Shown here: piece by piece, positions 13,490 to 61,428 of the stretch
Layout: each line of letters opens with the position of its first letter
Numbering within the stretch: position 1 is the first letter of the stretch
The notes under the pieces: model-generated
Databases searched by the model: none
What the model was told of the DNA's origin: nothing
What the model saw: only the letters and a program-made list of their open reading frames with translations
Virus record (IMG/VR): IMGVR_UViG_3300029305_004950
Location: 125,430-189,429 of that record
DNA: 64,000 nt
Source of the DNA: a virus
Taxonomy: Duplodnaviria > Heunggongvirae > Uroviricota > Caudoviricetes
Strand: one strand, 5' to 3'
Position numbers and translations under genes: made by a program

Positions 13490-15019
13490 ATGGCGACTAA
13501 AAAGAATCTAACATATAACGAAGATAGTATTAAAGTCCAAGAATATCCTGATAATGTAAGATCTAATCCTACAGTCTATATCAGTAGTCTTGGTAAAGAA
13601 GGTAATACGCATCTACTAAGAGAAGTAATTGATAACTCTATTGATGAATTCCTAAATGGTTTTGGTAAAACAATTACAATTGAAATTTCCAATAAAAAAG
13701 GTGTATTTAGAGTAATTGATGAAGGTCGTGGTGTTCCTCCTAAATCTATTGAAAGAGCATTTACTACATTACATGCTTCAGGTAAATTCGATAAAGATAG
13801 TTATAGCACATCAGGTGGTCAGCATGGTCTTGGTAGTACATGTGTTAATGCACTTAGTAAGTATTTCCTTGTCATTACACATGAAGGTGGTCATGAATAC
13901 TCTCAAAGATTTGAATATGGTAAGAAAGTAACTGAACTAAAAGATTTAGGAAAGTCTGATAAGGTAGGTACTATTGTAGAGTTTTGTCCTGATGAATCTG
14001 TAATGGATACATTTGAGATTGACATTGAATCAGTCAAAGATGAATGTAAGATGAAGTCTTTTATCAATAAAGGACTTACTATCATTATTAAGGACATGGA
14101 TGAAAAGAAACAGGCTAAGTATTATCATAAAGATGGTATTGAGGAATACGTACAGTTAAATGCTAAGAAAGCTCTATTTAATCCTATTACATTCTCTACA
14201 TCAACTACTGTTAACAAGGCTAATAAAGAATTGAATGTAGAAATCGATTGTTCCTTTACTTATGATAACTCTACTGATCCTATCAATATTAAATCCTTCT
14301 GTAATTCCATTTATACTAGTGATGGCGGTACTCATGAAACTGGTTTTAAAACAGCTCTTACTAGTTTGATTAAAAAGTATATTGCTGATAATAACCTACT
14401 AACTAAAAAAGATGCAAATCTAGACATTACTGGTGATTCAGTTCAGGAAGGTGTAGTAGCAGTAGTATCTATCAAACATCCTCATCCGATGTATGATCAG
14501 CAGTCTAAGAAAAAGCTTAACTCTACAGAAGTTTCTGGTGCAGTAATGAAAGCAGTTAATGCAGAATTTAGTAAGTGGATTGAAACCCATGCTAAAGAAA
14601 TGAAAGTACTTTGTACTAAAGTAATTGAATCTGCAAAGGCTAACAGTGCTGCTAAGAGAGCTAAAGAACTAGCTAATAAGAAATCTGAAAATGGAATTAC
14701 TGCTGTTTCTGATCTATCAAAATTAGCTAACTGTATTTCTAAGAAACCTGAAGAATGTGAACTGTTTGTAGTTGAGGGTAATTCTGCAAGTTCAAGTGCT
14801 AGAAATGGTAGAGATAAGCAAACTCAGGCTGTTTATGCTCTAAGAGGTAAGATTCTCAATACTAACAATCTAGCTGAAACTAAGATTTTTGAAAATAAGG
14901 AACTATCAGATTTGATTTATATCTTAACTGGTAAGAAAACTGCAATTGGTAAGAATTTCAATGTTGAAGACATGAAGTATCATAAACTGGTAGCCTTGAC
15001 TGATGCTGACGATGACGGT
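13490..15019 (+). CDS. gyrB: type II topoisomerase ATPase subunit (GyrB/ParE-like), exon 1
   Basis: GHKL ATPase motifs EVIDNSIDE, GRGVP, GGQHGLGS; Toprim EGNSASSS and DADDDG. The reading frame hits a stop two codons after the conserved DADxDG motif; the downstream ORF supplies the rest (HIASLILGF...PPLY). Confidence 0.88.
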
Positions 15020-16310
15020 AAATGACACATTAAGTCTGCATCAGTGAGAAATTTTCTAACAATACATTAGTATTAATGTTAGGAGGTTTCATTCAAATGA
15101 AAAATGAAAAAGAAACTAAAGAAAGATATGCTTCTGGTATTGAAAATTGTAAAAAACAAGCTCAAAATCTTAAACAAAAAGCATCTGAAAAATTTTTAAG
15201 TAAAGTTTACGAACAAGTTGGTGATGATTATACTTTTCTGGAAACTTATGTAACGAGTAAAACTAAACTCTGGGTAATACATAATGTTTGTGGACATAAG
15301 TATAGAGTAACTCCAAATGAGTTTACTTCTCATAAAAGACGTTGTCCAAACTGTGCAAATAAAAAAAGAGTACTTAATACTGGAATAAAACCTCATACAT
15401 TAGAATCTATTATTGAAAGTGTAAAAGAATTATCTAATGACGAATATGAGGTAGTTAGTAATGAGTATGAAAATAATAAAGAAAAAATTTGGGTTAGACA
15501 TAAAACATGTAGTTATTCATACCTTGTTCGTTATAATGACTTTCAGCAAGGATATAGATGTCCTTTATGTGCTGACATGAATAAAAGTCAGAATAATTCT
15601 AAACCAATACAGGATATTAAAAGTGTTCTAGATTTTAATAAAATTGAGTATGAATCAGAAGTGTCATTTGAAGAATGTGTAGACAAACGTTTTCTTCCAT
15701 TTGATATATTGGTTTATACTGATAAAGTCAATGATGAATACTTTTTAATTGAGTATGATGGACAACAACATTCTGATCCTAATGCACAATTTGGAGGAAC
15801 TAAAGAAGAAAGACTTATTAGATTTGAGCTAACTCAAAAACATGACACTATAAAAAATGCTTTTTGTGAAGAAAACAGTATAAAACTTTATAGAATTTCT
15901 TATAAAGAAGATTTGATGAGCAAACTAAGAAGTATATTGGAAGAAAATAATCTAATTTGACTTGCAGTGAATGCCGTCTAAAAACCTAGTTAACTGCGGG
16001 AAACTATCAATAAACACTATTTACTAAACTAAGATAGTAATATACTTAGTGGCAATGGGTAACTCCAAAGATATAGTAAAAAGAATAGTGTTTGATACAA
16101 TCGACGCAACGAAGTATCCTACATTTAGTAAAAGATAGGATATGAGTTCAACGACTATCGAAACCAACTAACTTAATGTTAGTAATAAGGTAAGTTGAAA
16201 TACTTACACGAAGGGAGTAGAGTAGGGAAATGTAAATTACAAAGTACCGAAAAGCTAGGCTATACTAATTTAGTATAGAAAATATAGTCTAAATTATGCA
16301 AAGTAATTTG
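15020..16310 (+). mobile_element. group I self-splicing intron with homing-endonuclease ORF in the P1 loop
   Basis: Internal guide GCCGTC (15973-15978) complements the exon-1 end GACGGU with a terminal U-G pair. P-like element AACTGCGGGAAAC (~15992), R element GTTCAACGACTA (16146-16157), S element AAAATATAGTCT (~16279). The intron ends in G (16310), giving an in-frame join DADDDG|LHIASLILGF. Confidence 0.75.
15097..15960 (+). CDS. intron-encoded homing endonuclease candidate: two Zn-ribbon-like modules plus a PD-(D/E)xK (Vsr/DUF559-like) nuclease domain
   Basis: ATG at 15097 with TAGGAGG RBS. Duplicated W..H..C..Y.V....F....RCP.CA modules; C-terminal RFLPFDILVY...LIEYDGQQH resembles the restriction-endonuclease-like fold core. 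Confidence 0.55.
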   Translation: MKNEKETKERYASGIENCKKQAQNLKQKASEKFLSKVYEQVGDDYTFLETYVTSKTKLWVIHNVCGHKYRVTPNEFTSHKRRCPNCANKKRVLNTGIKPHTLESIIESVKELSNDEYEVVSNEYENNKEKIWVRHKTCSYSYLVRYNDFQQGYRCPLCADMNKSQNNSKPIQDIKSVLDFNKIEYESEVSFEECVDKRFLPFDILVYTDKVNDEYFLIEYDGQQHSDPNAQFGGTKEERLIRFELTQKHDTIKNAFCEENSIKLYRISYKEDLMSKLRSILEENNLI

Positions 16311-17135
16311 CTTCACATTGCAAGCCTTATCTTAGGATTTGTATATAGACATGCTAAACCCATTTTGGAAAAAGGTTACATGTATATTGCAATGCCTCCT
16401 CTTTATTCTATCATTGAAAGAAATAAGAAACGTTATTTCTTAAATCAAGAGGAATATGATGCATATATTGAGGAAAAGATTTTTGAAAACTATGTATTTA
16501 GTTGTAATGAGATAGGTTTAAATAAGACTAAAGCTAAAACCATTCTTAAGAATTTTGAAACTTACAAAAACAAAGTAAGTGAACTATCTACTAGTACAGG
16601 TATCAATATGTATTTAATTGATGATGTATGTGATTATTTACGTACTAATGAAAATGCAACAAGTAAGGATATTGTGAATTTATTAAAACAGATTGGTGAT
16701 TTTGAATTCTTTAAGAATGATGAAGGAAATTCTGAGATTAATGGTCTTTATGATAATAGCTTTGTAAATGCAGTAATTAAGGATTTAGTAAAGTCTGCTA
16801 AAAAAGCTAAGAAGATTCTAGAAGATCTTAGTATTCCTGAAGAAGTATTCATCAATGATTATCATCTATCAATTAAGAACTATCAAGACATGTATAACAA
16901 GGTTACACCTAAGTCCAGAAGTCGATTCAAAGGCTTGGGAGAAATGGATGCTAATGAACTTTGGGAAACTACTCTTGATCCTTCAGTTAGAAACATTATG
17001 CAAGTTGTACTATCAGATGAAGAAAAGACAGATGATACTATGGATACACTACTAAATTCTAATAGTAAGTATGCAGACAAACGTAAAGTATTCTTAATGA
17101 AAAATCAGCAAAAGATTAAGGAATTAGAAATCTAA
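16311..17135 (+). CDS. gyrB: type II topoisomerase subunit B, exon 2 (C-terminal)
   Basis: HIASLILGFVYRH...YMYIAMPPLY... matches the GyrB region following DADVDG(S)HI; the KGLGEMDANELWETTLDP block matches the GyrB C-terminus. Confidence 0.85.
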   Translation, partial: LHIASLILGFVYRHAKPILEKGYMYIAMPPLYSIIERNKKRYFLNQEEYDAYIEEKIFENYVFSCNEIGLNKTKAKTILKNFETYKNKVSELSTSTGINMYLIDDVCDYLRTNENATSKDIVNLLKQIGDFEFFKNDEGNSEINGLYDNSFVNAVIKDLVKSAKKAKKILEDLSIPEEVFINDYHLSIKNYQDMYNKVTPKSRSRFKGLGEMDANELWETTLDPSVRNIMQVVLSDEEKTDDTMDTLLNSNSKYADKRKVFLMKNQQKIKELEI

Positions 17136-47979: not shown

Positions 47980-48312
47980 TTGACAATTCAAGAAAAAAGA
48001 AAAAAGATAGAAACTATGATTATCAATACTATGAACTTAATGGATAAGACTGGTAGTAACGGAAACAAGTATAAAGTCTTTTTTAAATCTATGAATGATG
48101 ATCAATTTTCTAAATGGGCAAAAAATTTCTTAAAAGATGATGAGGAAAATTTTTATATGGAAATCTTACCATATAAAAATGAACCAAAGCTAAAAGATTT
48201 AATTGAAGCTGGAGAATACCTAGATGTTCCATTAGATGAGTATATATACTATCGTGATAATGGAAATATGGATAATCCAATTAGAAGTAAGTATAAAGTA
48301 CCAGTTGGGTAA
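47980..48312 (+). CDS. hypothetical protein; possible 5' exon of an intron-split gene
   Basis: TTG start with AAAGGAGG RBS. Stop lies about 35 nt before a group I intron P element. Confidence 0.45.
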   Translation: MTIQEKRKKIETMIINTMNLMDKTGSNGNKYKVFFKSMNDDQFSKWAKNFLKDDEENFYMEILPYKNEPKLKDLIEAGEYLDVPLDEYIYYRDNGNMDNPIRSKYKVPVG

Positions 48313-48752
48313 AAGAATTCATTATATGCTCAACTTATAAATTTTCTTTAAATGCTGGAAATACTCATTTAGTAAAGAGTTAATCAGCAGCTAAAAAATT
48401 AAATGAATTTTTGTTTATATATTTTAATTACGTTCCCAACTCCATGAGATCGTAAAAGTATTCTAAAAACCCTGAGAATACTAATGAGTATAGTTTTAAG
48501 GCTGGTCTATACTCATCCCTCCTTTCCAAAAGTATATAATCAAAAAATCATTTTTGAAGAAGTCTTTACAGGTGACTTCTTTTTTTTTAGTTCAACGACT
48601 ATTTTTGTAGGATTTAAATGAATCTGAAATAAGAAAACTATCTTATATGATAGAAGATATAGTCTAAACTTTATTGAAATATAAAGATTAGTGTAGATTA
48701 ATGGACTACACACTTGAAATAATGATATAATGATACGCAAACTCCAACAGAT
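48313..48752 (+). mobile_element. group I intron core (P/Q/R/S) between two same-frame ORFs, boundaries approximate
   Basis: P AAATGCTGGAAAT 48350-48362, Q AATCAGCAGC 48382-48391, R GTTCAACGACTA 48590-48601, S AAGATATAGTCT 48654-48665, followed by P9-type hairpins. Confidence 0.55.
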
Positions 48753-49167
48753 GTTGATGAAAAAGAACTCTTATAGCCTATCAATAGATTCTCGTAATCT
48801 ACGTACAAATCAGCTTTCTGGCGATGACAAAGTAGCTAGATTAACTGAAGCGGAGAACTTTGCATCCTCAATTTGGGGAATCGAGGATGGATTAAAAGAG
48901 ATGATGGGTCCAAGAGCTGATGATAGTGTAGCTAAAACACAGCTATATAAACAAATAGCACAACAGGGTTATTGTTCTCTAAATGATATAGAAAATGATC
49001 CAGCTAATAAATACACTCTTAATACAGTTGATGTATTTATGATAGGCGCTGGATTAATGTCAGACTTAGTAACTGATGGCTTAGAATTGCGTAGAACTGA
49101 AGATGCTAGAAAACGTAGAACTTCTACATCTGAAAGAATCTCTGATAAAACTGAACGAAAAGATTAA
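48730..49167 (+). CDS. hypothetical protein; possible 3' exon (Arg/Asp-rich, composition differs from neighbours)
   Basis: 145-aa ORF in the same frame as 47980..48312, beginning inside or at the 3' end of the intron core. Confidence 0.4.
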   Translation: MIRKLQQMLMKKNSYSLSIDSRNLRTNQLSGDDKVARLTEAENFASSIWGIEDGLKEMMGPRADDSVAKTQLYKQIAQQGYCSLNDIENDPANKYTLNTVDVFMIGAGLMSDLVTDGLELRRTEDARKRRTSTSERISDKTERKD

Positions 49168-58410: not shown

Positions 58411-58586
58411 TTTAATTCTCCTTTGTAGTAATAAAATACTAGTAAACTCAATCTATGTTCACTATAGTTAAAATATATGTATATAAAGTGTAAAAATACG
58501 AATTTTTTCATAAAAAACAATAGAAAACTATAAATTACTAATCATTAAACTTGATTAATTTTTATAAAGGAAGGAAAATAAGAATT

Positions 58587-59180
58587 ATGGGTTTATTAAA
58601 AGCACAGTTTAACAAGGCTATTGATAATGGTAAGTTAGGTAAAAAAGTAGAATATATTCCTTTTTATCGTACGGGTATTGATATTTTTGACTATATTAAT
58701 GGTGTAAGAAAAGCAGATGGTACTATGGACTTAGGTATCCAAGGCGGTAGAATCATGATGGATATTGGTCAGTCTGGTACTGGTAAGACTTCTAAGATTA
58801 TTCAGCAGGCATGTTATATCGCCGATCAGTTTGAAGAAGCAGACGTATGGCATTATGATTATGAAAGATCTACTAGTAAGGAACGTGTTATGGCTCTAAC
58901 TGGTTGGTCTTCTGATCATTATGATGAAAAGTATCAAATTTTCCAAGAGAATATTTCTGTAGAAACTCTATTTAGAGCTTGTAAAGAAATTGAAAAGATT
59001 AAGATGGAAAATAAAGAAGCTATTCAGATTGATACTGGTAGAAAAGATGGCAGTGGTAAACCTGTTTACATCTTACCTCCTACAATTATGATTGTAGACT
59101 CCGTCGCTATGTTAGCTCCTGAAGATGTCGAGGATGATGATGAACTAAAGGGATCAATGGGTAAACTTGCAATTGCATAA
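58587..59180 (+). CDS. uvsX: UvsX/RecA-like recombinase, exon 1 (3' end approximate)
   Basis: ATG at 58587 with AAGGAAGGA RBS. Walker A GQSGTGKTS. IMIVDSVAMLAPE matches RecA/UvsX VIDSLGNL / VVDSVAAL. The frame stops at 59180 inside the conserved core, about 25 nt before an intron P element. Confidence 0.8.
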   Translation: MGLLKAQFNKAIDNGKLGKKVEYIPFYRTGIDIFDYINGVRKADGTMDLGIQGGRIMMDIGQSGTGKTSKIIQQACYIADQFEEADVWHYDYERSTSKERVMALTGWSSDHYDEKYQIFQENISVETLFRACKEIEKIKMENKEAIQIDTGRKDGSGKPVYILPPTIMIVDSVAMLAPEDVEDDDELKGSMGKLAIA

Positions 59181-60196
59181 TGTGCTCATTTAAAACTCAC
59201 TTAATTGCTGGAAAAACTAATTTAGAAAATCAGCAGCTTATAAACAGTTGAAAAAATTATTGCACTAATTTTCGCACCCAAAATCTAACATATAATTAAA
59301 TTCTATATGTTAGGAGTTGTAAAAATGAAAATAGATTTTCAAAGTTTTATGGTTGGATGTTGTTTAGGTGATTCTAGTTTTGAATTTAGAGCTAGAACAG
59401 ATACATTTGATAGAATTTCATTTGGACATAAGATAGAGAATAAAGATTATGTTGATTTAAAGAAAAATATTTTATCTGAAAATAACATAGAGTTTTCAGA
59501 ATTAAAAGGATTAAGTATGACTAATATCTGTCGTTTTAGAATTTCTTATTCAAAATATAGTGAGTTAATTGAAACTTATTATGAATTAACTAGAAATAAT
59601 GATAGAAGTAGAAAACTTCCATCAATTGAGTATATTACTCCAACTACTCTTTTCTTTTGGTTTTTAGATGATGGTTATACTACAGCTAGAAATTGTAAAA
59701 ATAAGAGTTCTAAAATTTCTGGTTATGTTAGAACTGAAATAGGAATTGCTTTAAAGAGCTATGCTGACGAGGATATTATGAACTTAACACCTCAAATCAA
59801 TGAAAAATTTGGTTTAAATTTTACTTATAAGTATGATTACTATAATGGTACTAAAAAGATTAAAGATATTATCCTTTCAAAAAAGAAAGACCAATATAAG
59901 TTTTTGGATCTTATGTATCAATTTAAAGAAATTTTACCTGTAAGTATGGAATATAAATTCTGTCTTTGTGAAATACCTAAACGAAATGGAATTAGTGTAG
60001 ATACAAGATACAATATGTGTGATGTACATGAAACTGGATTTTGTACATGTAGAGAAAAAGATTTCTCTAATTGTTTATAAGTTCAACGACTATGTCATTG
60101 CAAGTGCAATGTGAATATTGAGTACTGGAAACAGTAAAGATATAGTCTAATCTAAGTAGTAATACTTAGAAGAAGAACTAACAATTCTTCAAATAA
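59181..60196 (+). mobile_element. group I intron 1 in the recombinase gene, carrying a LAGLIDADG homing endonuclease gene in a peripheral loop (boundaries approximate)
   Basis: P AATTGCTGGAAAA 59203-59215, Q AATCAGCAGC 59227-59236, then the ORF, then R GTTCAACGACTA 60081-60092 directly after the ORF stop, and S AAGATATAGTCT 60137-60148. Confidence 0.75.
59325..60080 (+). CDS. LAGLIDADG-family homing endonuclease (double-motif)
   Basis: ATG at 59325 with TAGGAG RBS. Motif 1 FMVGCCLGDSSF, motif 2 LFFWFLDDGYTT. Confidence 0.65.
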   Translation: MKIDFQSFMVGCCLGDSSFEFRARTDTFDRISFGHKIENKDYVDLKKNILSENNIEFSELKGLSMTNICRFRISYSKYSELIETYYELTRNNDRSRKLPSIEYITPTTLFFWFLDDGYTTARNCKNKSSKISGYVRTEIGIALKSYADEDIMNLTPQINEKFGLNFTYKYDYYNGTKKIKDIILSKKKDQYKFLDLMYQFKEILPVSMEYKFCLCEIPKRNGISVDTRYNMCDVHETGFCTCREKDFSNCL

Positions 60197-60328
60197 AAGC
60201 TGGCAACAGCAATTGCAAAGGCAAATACTAACGTTTTTAAGCGTATTATGTCTCCTATGCAGAATGCTAACATTATTCTAATGCTAGTTAATCATATTAC
60301 ACAGAAAATTGATAGATTTTTGTCAATG
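60197..60328 (+). CDS. uvsX: UvsX/RecA-like recombinase, internal micro-exon
   Basis: Open frame KLATAIAKANTNVFKRIMSPMQNANIILMLVNHITQKIDRFLSM. It aligns with RecA [26 protein letters not shown] and T4 UvsX CIAINHTYETQEMFSKTVM. Bounded upstream by intron-1 S and downstream by the intron-2 P element. Confidence 0.55.
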
Positions 60329-60758
60329 TAAAATCTTAAGAATTGCTGGAAAAATCGATAAGATAAATCAGCATCCCTTATATTAAGGGTTCAACGACTA
60401 TATACTATAGAAATCTATAGTTAGTATAAGACTTAGAAGATATAGTCTGAACTTCTATGAAAATAGAAGACTTAAGTACGATTAATGAACGTACTAATAA
60501 TACAATTGATTAATCCGATGGCTCGAACCAAGGCTCAGATAAACTATCTTAAGCAGGATGAGTCAATTCCAGGTAAACTATTTACTGCCTGATGTATATT
60601 CTTAAATGCTGGAAAATTTATAAAACAATCAGCATCTAGTATTTTATACTAGTTCAACGACTAATTTTACTTTTCAAATGAAAAGGAAATGGAATCTTTG
60701 AAGATATAGTCTCAACTTCTATGGAAACATAGAGAAATTTGTAGCTTAATAAACTACA
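60329..60758 (+). mobile_element. two tandem minimal group I intron cores (introns 2 and 3) in the recombinase gene
   Basis: Core A: P 60341-60353, Q 60365-60374, R 60389-60400, S 60437-60448. Core B: P 60604-60616, Q 60627-60636, R 60652-60663, S 60701-60712. Each has P6/P8/P9-type hairpins. An in-frame stop at 60750 forces the 3' splice site to between 60753 and about 60775. Confidence 0.6.
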
Positions 60759-61379
60759 ATGAAGAAATGTAAAAAATTGGGTAAAGCAGTTTCTTACCTA
60801 ACTAATACACTAACTAAACTAGAAACAGGCTCTAAGCTAGAAACTGATAAGGAATTTGGTATTAAGGGTTTCTATCTATCTGGTATTCTAGTTAAGTCTC
60901 GTTCTACTGAAGCTGGTGTATCCTTTAAGATGGTATTTGAACAGAAGAAGGGTGTTAATAACCTACTAACAAACTTTGCTAATCTTAAGGATCTAGGTCG
61001 TATCACTGGTGCAGGTCGTAGCTTTAAACTAGATACTTGTCCTGATGTTAAGTTCTCTATTAAGGAATTCCAGAATAAGTACTATGAATCTGCAGAACTT
61101 AGAAAAGCTTTTGATGCAGCAGTTCATGAAGAATATTCTAAGTTCCTACCTGAAGCTGGTGTTGCACCTAGTCAGTCTATTGATATGAATAAGCTAGATG
61201 AACTAATTGAAGATGATGTTAAGTCTGCAGGTAAGAAATCTAGTAAGACAACTAAAACTACTAAAGCAACTACTTATGAACTAGTAGATGAAGAAAATGG
61301 TGTTTACCAAGGTACAGATGGTAAGTACTATATCATCGAGAATGGTGAATATGTAGAAGTAGAATATGAAGAAGAATAA
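60759..61379 (+). CDS. uvsX: UvsX/RecA-like recombinase, 3' exon
   Basis: GKAVSYLTNTL...GFYLSGILVKSRSTEAGVSFKMVF aligns with T4 UvsX GPMYSADTVF...GYQFVLNVEKSRTVKEKSKFFIDV and RecA GNALKFYASVRLDIRR; acidic C-terminal tail as in UvsX. Confidence 0.75.
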   Translation: MKKCKKLGKAVSYLTNTLTKLETGSKLETDKEFGIKGFYLSGILVKSRSTEAGVSFKMVFEQKKGVNNLLTNFANLKDLGRITGAGRSFKLDTCPDVKFSIKEFQNKYYESAELRKAFDAAVHEEYSKFLPEAGVAPSQSIDMNKLDELIEDDVKSAGKKSSKTTKTTKATTYELVDEENGVYQGTDGKYYIIENGEYVEVEYEEE

Positions 61380-61389
61380 ATAAAACAAA

Positions 61390-61428
61390 GGAGATAGAGA
61401 ATGTTAAATCTCTATCTCCTTTTCATCT
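61390..61428 (+). terminator. rho-independent terminator
   Basis: AGGAGATAGAGA-loop-CTCTATCTCCT plus T's. Confidence 0.55.

Follow-up and report, generated by a model that had tools for sequence, protein, structure and literature searches.

The region described here very probably belongs to an AR9/PBS1-like jumbo phage and is the central part of its UvsX/RecA-like recombinase gene, which is cut by three separate group I introns. By the same reading, introns 2 and 3 are independent, ORF-less and miniaturised ribozymes, putatively of the IA2 type (195 and 205 nt), and a real exon of 66 nt lies between them. In the window (the whole stretch of 64 000 nucleotides that was analysed), the fragmented open reading frame at 58.5–61.4 kb consists of pieces resembling a recombinase of the RecA/UvsX type. 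The exon–intron map, the helices and the covariation of the helices at this locus are read directly from the data, and the features are listed in Table 1.

Table 1. Exons, introns and intron helices of the recombinase gene (window coordinates; two ranges separated by a slash are the two strands of a helix)
Feature	Position	Strand	Description
Exon 1, recombinase	58587–59162	+	576 nt; residues 1–192; ends ...DELKGSMG; alignment to uninterrupted P0001–P0014 and blastn to intronless L216
Intron 1, group I	59163–60202	+	1040 nt; terminal G 60202; junction GSMG↓ATAIAKA from homolog alignment
Intron 1 P1 guide	59184–59189		GCUCAU, with exon AUGGGU; U·G at cleavage site
Homing endonuclease gene	59325–60080	+	251 aa; two LAGLIDADG motifs; in P6 loop of intron 1; Pfam PF03161 LAGLIDADG_2, E 8.9e-14
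Exon 2	60203–60313	+	111 nt; residues 193–229; ATAIAKANTNVFKRIMSPMQNANIILMLVNHITQKID; ATAIAKA...TQKID; homolog alignment; blastn block 60203–60314 vs L216
Intron 2, group I, ORF-less	60314–60508	+	195 nt; terminal G 60508
Intron 2 P1 guide	60322–60327		GUCAAU, with exon AUUGAU; U·G at splice site
Intron 2 P3	60334–60338 / 60427–60431		UCUUA/UAAGA
Intron 2 P4	60344–60349 / 60368–60373
Intron 2 P5	60354–60356 / 60362–60364
Intron 2 P6	60375–60380 / 60384–60389		CCCUUA/UAAGGG
Intron 2 P7	60396–60400 / 60443–60447
Intron 2 P7.1-type hairpin	60405–60420		CUAUAG-AAAU-CUAUAG
Intron 2, place of P8	60432–60435		CUUA only
Intron 2 P9	60452–60469		GAAA loop
Intron 2 P9.1	60475–60495
Exon 3 (micro-exon)	60509–60574	+	66 nt; 22 codons; encodes INPMARTKAQINYLKQDESIPG; homolog alignment; blastn block 60509–60573 vs L216
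Intron 3, group I, ORF-less	60575–60779	+	205 nt; terminal G 60779
Intron 3 P10 strand	60581–60586		UUUACU, with GGUAAA, the first six bases of exon 4; directly 5' of the P1 guide
Intron 3 P1 guide	60587–60591		GCCUG, with exon CAGGU; U·G at splice site
Intron 3 P3	60598–60602 / 60691–60695		AUUCU/GGAAU
Intron 3 P4	60607–60612 / 60629–60634
Intron 3 P6	60636–60641 / 60647–60652		CUAGUA/UACUAG
Intron 3 P7	60659–60663 / 60707–60711
Intron 3 P7.1-type hairpin	60670–60685		CUUUUC-AAAU-GAAAAG
Intron 3, place of P8	60696–60699		CUUU only
Intron 3 P9	60718–60733		GAAA loop
Intron 3 P9.1	60739–60759
Exon 4	60780–61379	+	600 nt; residues 252–450 and stop; GKAVSYLTNTLTKLE...; starts GKAVSYL; homolog alignment and blastn vs L216
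Introns at IPG↓G in related loci			L001/L011, ~620 nt with small ORF; L004, ~300 nt; L161, ~370 nt

A trial joined protein retrieved 184 homologs in a protein search. The named ones are the UvsX-like recombinases of the Bacillus phages AR9, PBS1 and Internexus (47%) and of Staphylococcus jumbo phages (37–40%), and the closest ones are the metagenomic proteins P0001 (86%) and P0002 (81%), both uninterrupted. The exon ends were set by aligning 14 uninterrupted homologs, and blastn against the intronless allele L216 was used as a check at the DNA level. The blastn alignment breaks exactly at 60313/60314, 60508/60509, 60574 and 60780. A second intronless allele is present on a 299-kb contig (L009, 83% protein identity). 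The four exons joined give 1353 nt and 450 aa in frame, with no internal stops. The 450-aa product is aligned with P0001 gap-free through all three junctions, with 86% identity overall and only two differences in residues 181–300. For the first junction, GSMGKL↓ATAIA was also considered and was ruled out, as the alignment gives GSMG↓ATAIA.

The product of exon 3 is identical to P0001 at 22 of 22 positions. Asn243, Pro252 and Gly253 are invariant in 15 homologs, and the 3' end of the exon encodes the invariant P-G of a P-G-G motif. The first-pass annotation, which relied on a comparison with T4 UvsX, had expected essentially no exon between the two intron cores, and had taken the ~150 nt separating them as a P9 extension or a tiny exon. 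That comparison was misleading, and the closer homologs (86% identity) resolve the exon. The ~150 nt are composed of the P9/P9.1 tail of intron 2 (60449–60508), the conserved 66-nt exon 3, and the P1 region of intron 3 (60575–60603). The exon ends proposed earlier, ...RFLSM and MKKCKKL, turned out to be intron sequence read as codons: the former comes from the first 15 bases of intron 2, the latter from the final 21 of intron 3. The true ends are ...TQKID and GKAVSYL.... The statement that read-through is impossible agrees with our map: stop codons are located 3' of the 5' splice sites of both mini introns, and TAA is present at 60747–60752. At the junctions of the predicted spliced RNA, exon 2 to exon 3 would read ...AAAATTGAT followed by ATTAATCCG..., and exon 3 to exon 4 would read ...ATTCCAGGT followed by GGTAAAGCA...; skipping of exon 3 would give ...AAAATTGAT followed by GGTAAAGCA....

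The recombinase locus (58551–61400, or the portion covered) is 99.96–100% identical in at least seven independent assemblies from different samples. An assembly artefact is thus discounted. Source samples of the phage include JGI 3300018475, 3300018430 and 3300024270, and ENA ERZ272483xx. The translated 60759–61379 segment is present on 24 contigs. In a search for a near-identical allele without introns, the closest intronless genes were only 82–85% identical in DNA. No protein of the spliced form was found at 90% identity or more in a collection of 5.8 billion proteins, and no RNA-derived assembly was found at that identity. A megablast search of the locus against 50 697 phage records gave only matches of 36–50 nt, in the conserved P7–P9 core, and no close cultured relative.

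In all three introns, the 5' splice site follows a U, and the 3' end is a G; aligning protein and DNA with intronless alleles gave the position of this G independently. A guide sequence complementary to the exon is located 8–21 nt into each intron; it matches the end of the upstream exon exactly and forms P1 with a U·G wobble. The two cores noted in the first pass (60341–60448 and 60604–60712) each span P4 to the 3' strand of P7, and both are matched by RF00028 and by our R1 model. They belong to minimal group I introns as claimed, each with P1, P3, P4, P5, P6, P7, P9 and the terminal G. The first-pass annotation had named in advance the failure of either core to form the P3–P7 pairings as grounds for abandoning the claim, and both cores form them. 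Introns 2 and 3 have in common P4 (UGCUGG/UCAGCA), a short P5, P7 (GACUA/UAGUC) and P9 with a GAAA loop, and P3–P4–P5–P6 and P7 are arranged with the P3/P7 pseudoknot. The signatures UCAACGACUA and AGAUAUAGUCU match introns of AR9, PBS1, and Enterococcus and Staphylococcus phages. Intron 3 has a textbook P10, and the P10 of intron 2 is weak. Two copies of AATTGAT are present, one closing exon 2 (60307–60313) and one spanning the 3' splice site of intron 2 (60505–60511), so that the 3' junction of this intron is a second possible pairing site for the guide GUCAAU. According to the unconstrained minimum-energy fold, P1, P4–P6, P7, the hairpin, P9 and P9.1 of intron 2 are recovered (z -4.56). In the case of intron 3, the unconstrained fold recovers P1, P4, P5, P6, the hairpin after P7, P9 and P9.1, and P7 is not recovered (z -2.45).

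An Rfam scan of the whole window at the gathering threshold gave no match. The RF00028 scores of introns 3, 1 and 2 are 43.3, 33.4 and 33.2 bits, respectively, all below the gathering score of 50; the matches of introns 3 and 2 cover 60502–60734 (E 3e-9) and 60280–60469 (E 3e-6), where the E-values are those of a 1.8-kb search. The general RF00028 model is known to under-score compact phage introns. Therefore, the assignment to group I rests on P1, the core helices and the terminal G. A custom covariance model (R1), built from five introns of the mini-intron type, gives 126.9 bits for intron 2 and 133.1 bits for intron 3. In an alignment of eight introns of this architecture, which was fitted to the structure of the model and represents only about six distinct lineages, 90.9% of the cells are paired vs 33–43% when the partners are slid, 22 of the 36 pairs are changed on both sides, and none of 500 shuffles matches this. 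P4 and P7 are invariant, and P3, P5, P6 and P9 covary. As part of P3 is misplaced in the fitted alignment (70% paired), P3 was checked by hand in each intron, and it covaries as UCUUA/UAAGA, AUUCU/GGAAU, ACUCA/UGAGU, GUCUU/AAGAC and UUUCU/AGAAA. MAFFT alignments of the mini introns were discarded, with P3, P6 and P9 out of register.

Intron 1 has the P3 ACUCA/UGAGU and a 4-bp P8 (ACUG-GAAA-CAGU), and the R1 model matches its 5' half at 59189–59282 and its 3' half at 60055–60172. Of the three recombinase introns, only intron 1 encodes a homing endonuclease; none is encoded in introns 2 and 3, and no ORF fits 195 or 205 nt. A 251-aa gene is called at the corresponding place in L202 and L204–L207. 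The palindrome GCAATTGC lies 7 nt into intron 1 (59169–59176), with a second copy 7 nt into exon 2 (60209–60216). By pairing with each other, these could form an extended helix of the P10 type, and because of this repeat, alignments overrun the true 5' splice site of intron 1 by 18 nt.

The mini introns differ from the usual plan at P2 and P8. In introns 2 and 3, P1 and P3 are joined by about six bases, and there is no P2. After the 5' strand of P7, one hairpin is followed by a joiner of 5–6 nt, the 3' strand of P3, CUUA or CUUU, and the J8/7–P7 sequence GAAGAUAUAGUC; no hairpin is present between the 3' strand of P3 and J8/7. The single hairpin lies between the 5' strand of P7 and the 3' strand of P3, where two are expected in IA2 introns. 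It appears to occupy the IA-type P7.1/P7.2 position, and nothing appears to be at the P8 position. The canonical reading, in which the 3' strand of P3 directly follows P7 and the hairpin is P8, was rejected because only 4–6 nt precede the hairpin, no complementary 5' strand is found, and 15–16 nt follow the hairpin vs the 0–1 expected. We therefore file introns 2 and 3 as a variant architecture, with the missing P8 as an atypical reduction, and still as members of group I.

Comparison with relatives bearing P8 supports a probable loss of this helix. Intron 1 shows the same order of elements as the mini introns with the 4-bp P8 in addition, the intron of L107 has a 3-bp P8, and P2, P7.1, P7.2 and a P8 of 5–6 bp are all present in the L004 and L161 orthologs of intron 3. 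At this one insertion site, the introns form a size series of roughly 620 nt, about 300 nt and 205 nt. The plan without P8 recurs in other viral contigs with covarying P3 (L074/L051, GUCUU/AAGAC; L070/L109/L071, UUUCU/AGAAA), and also in L071b and L049. In the Azoarcus intron structure, P8 is the receptor for the L2 tetraloop, so a joint loss of P2 and P8 would be coherent. P2 and P8 are elements within or near the conserved core, and without both, efficient protein-independent splicing is not guaranteed. Our literature search, of incomplete coverage, returned no description of a natural group I intron lacking P8 or of the smallest group I intron. We tentatively consider it possible, with real doubt, that introns 2 and 3 and the similar introns in L070/L071, L074/L051 and L049 share a naturally occurring group I architecture that is ~195 nt long, is catalytically competent, and has a single P7.1-type hairpin but neither P2 nor P8. 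If they are self-splicing, introns 2 and 3 would be among the smallest natural group I ribozymes, and P8 would not be an obligatory core element. Introns of working size lacking P2 and P8 would also offer a natural minimal scaffold, directly testable as a ribozyme. Mini cores seemingly without both P8 and the P7.1-type hairpin were observed at L042 10644–10780, L053 1041–1173 and L078 3741–3870, with only 10–17 nt from the 5' strand of P7 to J8/7. They may function as ribozymes at a still smaller size, or they may be copies in decay.

The anatomy suggests that each intron would be spliced on its own by the two-step pathway initiated by guanosine. Each intron would fold on the pre-mRNA, and the guide would pair with the last 5–6 exon bases, so that cleavage falls at the U·G pair of P1. 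The 5' splice site would be attacked by exogenous guanosine bound in P7, and then the freed 3'-OH of the exon would attack after the terminal G. The four exons would thus be joined to the 1353-nt reading frame. By this reading, introns 2 and 3 have lost P2 and P8 and retain one hairpin of the P7.1/P7.2 type. Intron 1 is located 111 and 177 exon bases upstream of introns 2 and 3, respectively. The two mini introns have no endonuclease; they most likely persist, and spread if they do so at all, by co-conversion with intron 1, which bears the LAGLIDADG gene. Catalysis, the order of splicing and mobility are all deduced.

A rival reading starts from the first-pass suggestion of a twintron-like arrangement or a recent tandem duplication; in it, back-to-back cores with no meaningful exon are removed together, with the ~150 nt between them as a P9 extension. 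Introns 2 and 3 are mutual best matches among the 55 distinct cores sampled, the sequences of P4, P7, J8/7 and P9 are nearly identical between them, and similar introns in Twort orf142 can act as one ribozyme that skips the exon (PMC10136302). However, 60509–60574 encodes 22 residues identical to those of uninterrupted homologs, invariant ones included, and neither intron shares its P1 guide or its terminal G with the other. A hybrid ribozyme combining the 5' half of intron 2 with the 3' half of intron 3 would have no P3, since UCUUA of intron 2 cannot pair with GGAAU of intron 3. The introns lie side by side with the coding exon between them, each with its own P1–P9, and are not nested as in a twintron. 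Their identity in the structural columns is just 63%, vs 58–61% for unrelated loci. They differ in the P1 guide, P3, P6 and the P7.1-type hairpin, and as the stems differ by compensatory changes, there is no support for tandem duplication as a recent event; common descent from the distant past is plausible. We regard removal as a single back-to-back unit as scarcely credible. A further reading is regulated skipping of exon 3: since 66 nt is a multiple of three, the recombinase lacking 22 residues would stay in frame. Skipping is documented for the 23-nt exon of Twort orf142, the 34-nt exon of Coxiella 23S rRNA and the SIOphi polymerase gene, but differentiation of the kind seen here in P1, P3, P6 and P7.1 suppressed skipping in engineered tandem introns (PMC10136302). 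The skipped segment contains invariant residues, and the product would probably be inactive. Such a use of exon 3 is improbable in our view.

It is also conceivable, at a very low probability, that the introns are decayed remnants that do not splice and that the recombinase is a pseudogene or exists only as fragments. P2 and P8 are missing, and the Rfam scores are below gathering. Against this, the four exons are intact, in frame and 86% identical to the uninterrupted homolog, the stems show compensatory change, the guides match the exons exactly, and the locus is unchanged in many samples. A less improbable variant, though still an unlikely one, keeps group I splicing and adds a helper that would offset the lost P2/P8 contacts, for example a maturase, in the form of the LAGLIDADG protein from intron 1, or else an RNA chaperone from the host or the phage. 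Some organellar group I introns have LAGLIDADG proteins as their maturases, the mini introns have lost stabilising elements at the periphery, and intron 1 with its ORF is in the same transcript. On the other hand, other small phage introns self-splice, and the contig L213 has an ortholog of intron 2 without an intron 1 at site 192, so this helper is not always linked.

Of some 80 related recombinase loci, taken from viral and metagenome collections, the majority are uninterrupted, and roughly a quarter to a third are split or end close to known insertion sites. Larger introns with the same start (AAAC...CUGCCUG) and the same end (GAAGA...UUG) occupy the intron 3 site (IPG↓G) in several lineages. 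The most natural interpretation of intron 3 is that it arose by deletion from an intron that had long occupied this site. At the intron 1 site (GSMG↓A), L161 has an ORF-less intron of ~280 nt, and L191 has another intron. Further insertion points are located near residues 65–71, 174/175, 246, 250 and 254. Comparison with the relatives marks residues 229–255 of the recombinase as a hot spot, in which five or more distinct insertion points are located. The recombinase of L161 (Ga0326512_10009839, 1660–2860) has three introns, at sites 192, 246 and 251. Between its introns at KQD↓ESIPG and IPG↓G there are only 15 nt of exon, GAGAGTATCCCAGGT, which code for ESIPG; this locus is much nearer to the idea of no exon than the locus in the window.

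Intron 2 was absent from the ~80 loci first surveyed, and its ortholog was found by a short-query protein search in L213 (ENA ERZ27248446; 340–702), from samples that also contain the window phage. This 193-nt ortholog is located at the same KID↓I site, and the exon that follows is 63 nt. The two introns are about 93% identical, vs 78–88% for the flanking exons, with a compensatory change from A–U to G–C in P5 and a change from GAAA to GUAA in L9. L213 has no intron at site 192, which shows that intron 2 can exist without intron 1. A further mini intron in L213 starts 3 nt (one codon) upstream of the intron 3 site, after CCU, with the guide GGGGAUG. It resembles intron 3 in the first bases and in P6, and the contig ends before its 3' splice site. 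The shift could result from intron sliding or reinsertion.

Two more group I introns are present in the window. The one at 15026–16300 (about 1.27 kb, with an ORF at 15076–15960) is flanked by the ORFs 13490–15025 and 16296–17135, shows the full IA2 layout with P7.1, P7.2 and P8, and is inserted right after ...LTDADDDGK. From motifs recognised by eye, the split gene resembles that of a type II topoisomerase (GyrB-like). The other, at 48313–48729, splits a second gene, into the ORFs 47980–48312 and 48730–49167, and is ORF-less and about 400 nt, with a P7.1-type hairpin and P8; the custom-model matches are 48336–48477 and 48543–48689. An Rfam scan of 1–59100 by E-value gave nothing at E ≤0.01, though motif and custom-model searches show these two introns there. 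All five group I introns of the window are below the Rfam gathering score, and default annotation misses them. Gene callers break the recombinase into three or four pieces whose ends carry residues translated from intron sequence, and the exon map restores the intact 450-aa protein. Many small cores of the huge-phage type were found in the viral contigs analysed. Runs of at least five mini group I cores were observed in huge-phage contigs of 230–400 kb (L079 6240–7220, L055 12378–13561 and L114 9985–12248). Their spacing of 170–215 nt would imply chains of micro-exons in one gene.

Multi-intron phage genes with micro-exons are already known, and the closest precedent is orf142 of the Staphylococcus phage Twort. 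According to the summary in PMC10136302 of the work of Landthaler & Shub (1999), this gene has three group I introns, and introns 2 and 3 are highly similar IA2 introns around a 23-nt exon. Both cases thus have three introns of the self-splicing type in one phage gene, with the two downstream ones being close relatives around a very short exon, and the signatures UCAACGACUA ... AGAUAUAGUCU of the IA2 type are common to both. The genes differ (tail tube protein vs recombinase), as do the exons (23 nt vs 66 nt). Unlike the Twort ribozymes, the window mini introns appear to lack P2 and P8. They are presumably about 50 nt smaller than the Twort ribozymes. In Coxiella 23S rRNA, an exon of 34 nt lies between two introns (PMC10136302).

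The AR9-like jumbo phages (AR9, PBS1, MarsHill, Madawaska and Machias) belong to the same lineage as the window phage, and the UvsX-like protein of AR9 is 47% identical to the product described here. In these phages, group I introns split essential genes (RNA polymerase, gyrase, polymerase and terminase). The annotation of AR9 gp204 joins three pieces, with ~60 nt of exon between two introns, and a mini intron of about 175 nt lies in the MarsHill DNA polymerase I gene. By contrast with the present locus, the cultured relatives have an uninterrupted recombinase gene, and their introns retain P8. The Jug phages, which are huge gut phages, have 2513 group I introns, about 18 per genome, with a mean size of ~206 nt, and 37 of 76 were confirmed by metatranscriptome reads (PMC12880540). 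These introns are similar to introns 2 and 3 in that they are of the same size class, ORF-less, several per gene and located in essential genes of jumbo phages, but the clade and the host genes are different. In most small huge-phage cores, the 3' strand of P3 directly follows P7 and then the P8 hairpin appears, whereas introns 2 and 3 have the P7.1-type hairpin and no P8.

Among RecA-family genes, recA of Bacillus anthracis contains a group I intron. [quoted passage not shown] As in the window, a recombinase of this family is split in a conserved region, but these introns are single, have their own endonuclease, and show no tandem mini introns or micro-exon. The new details of the present locus are the recombinase as the host gene, the particular insertion sites and the architecture without P2 and P8. 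With this locus, a recombinase gene is added to those phage genes in which several group I introns are combined with micro-exons.
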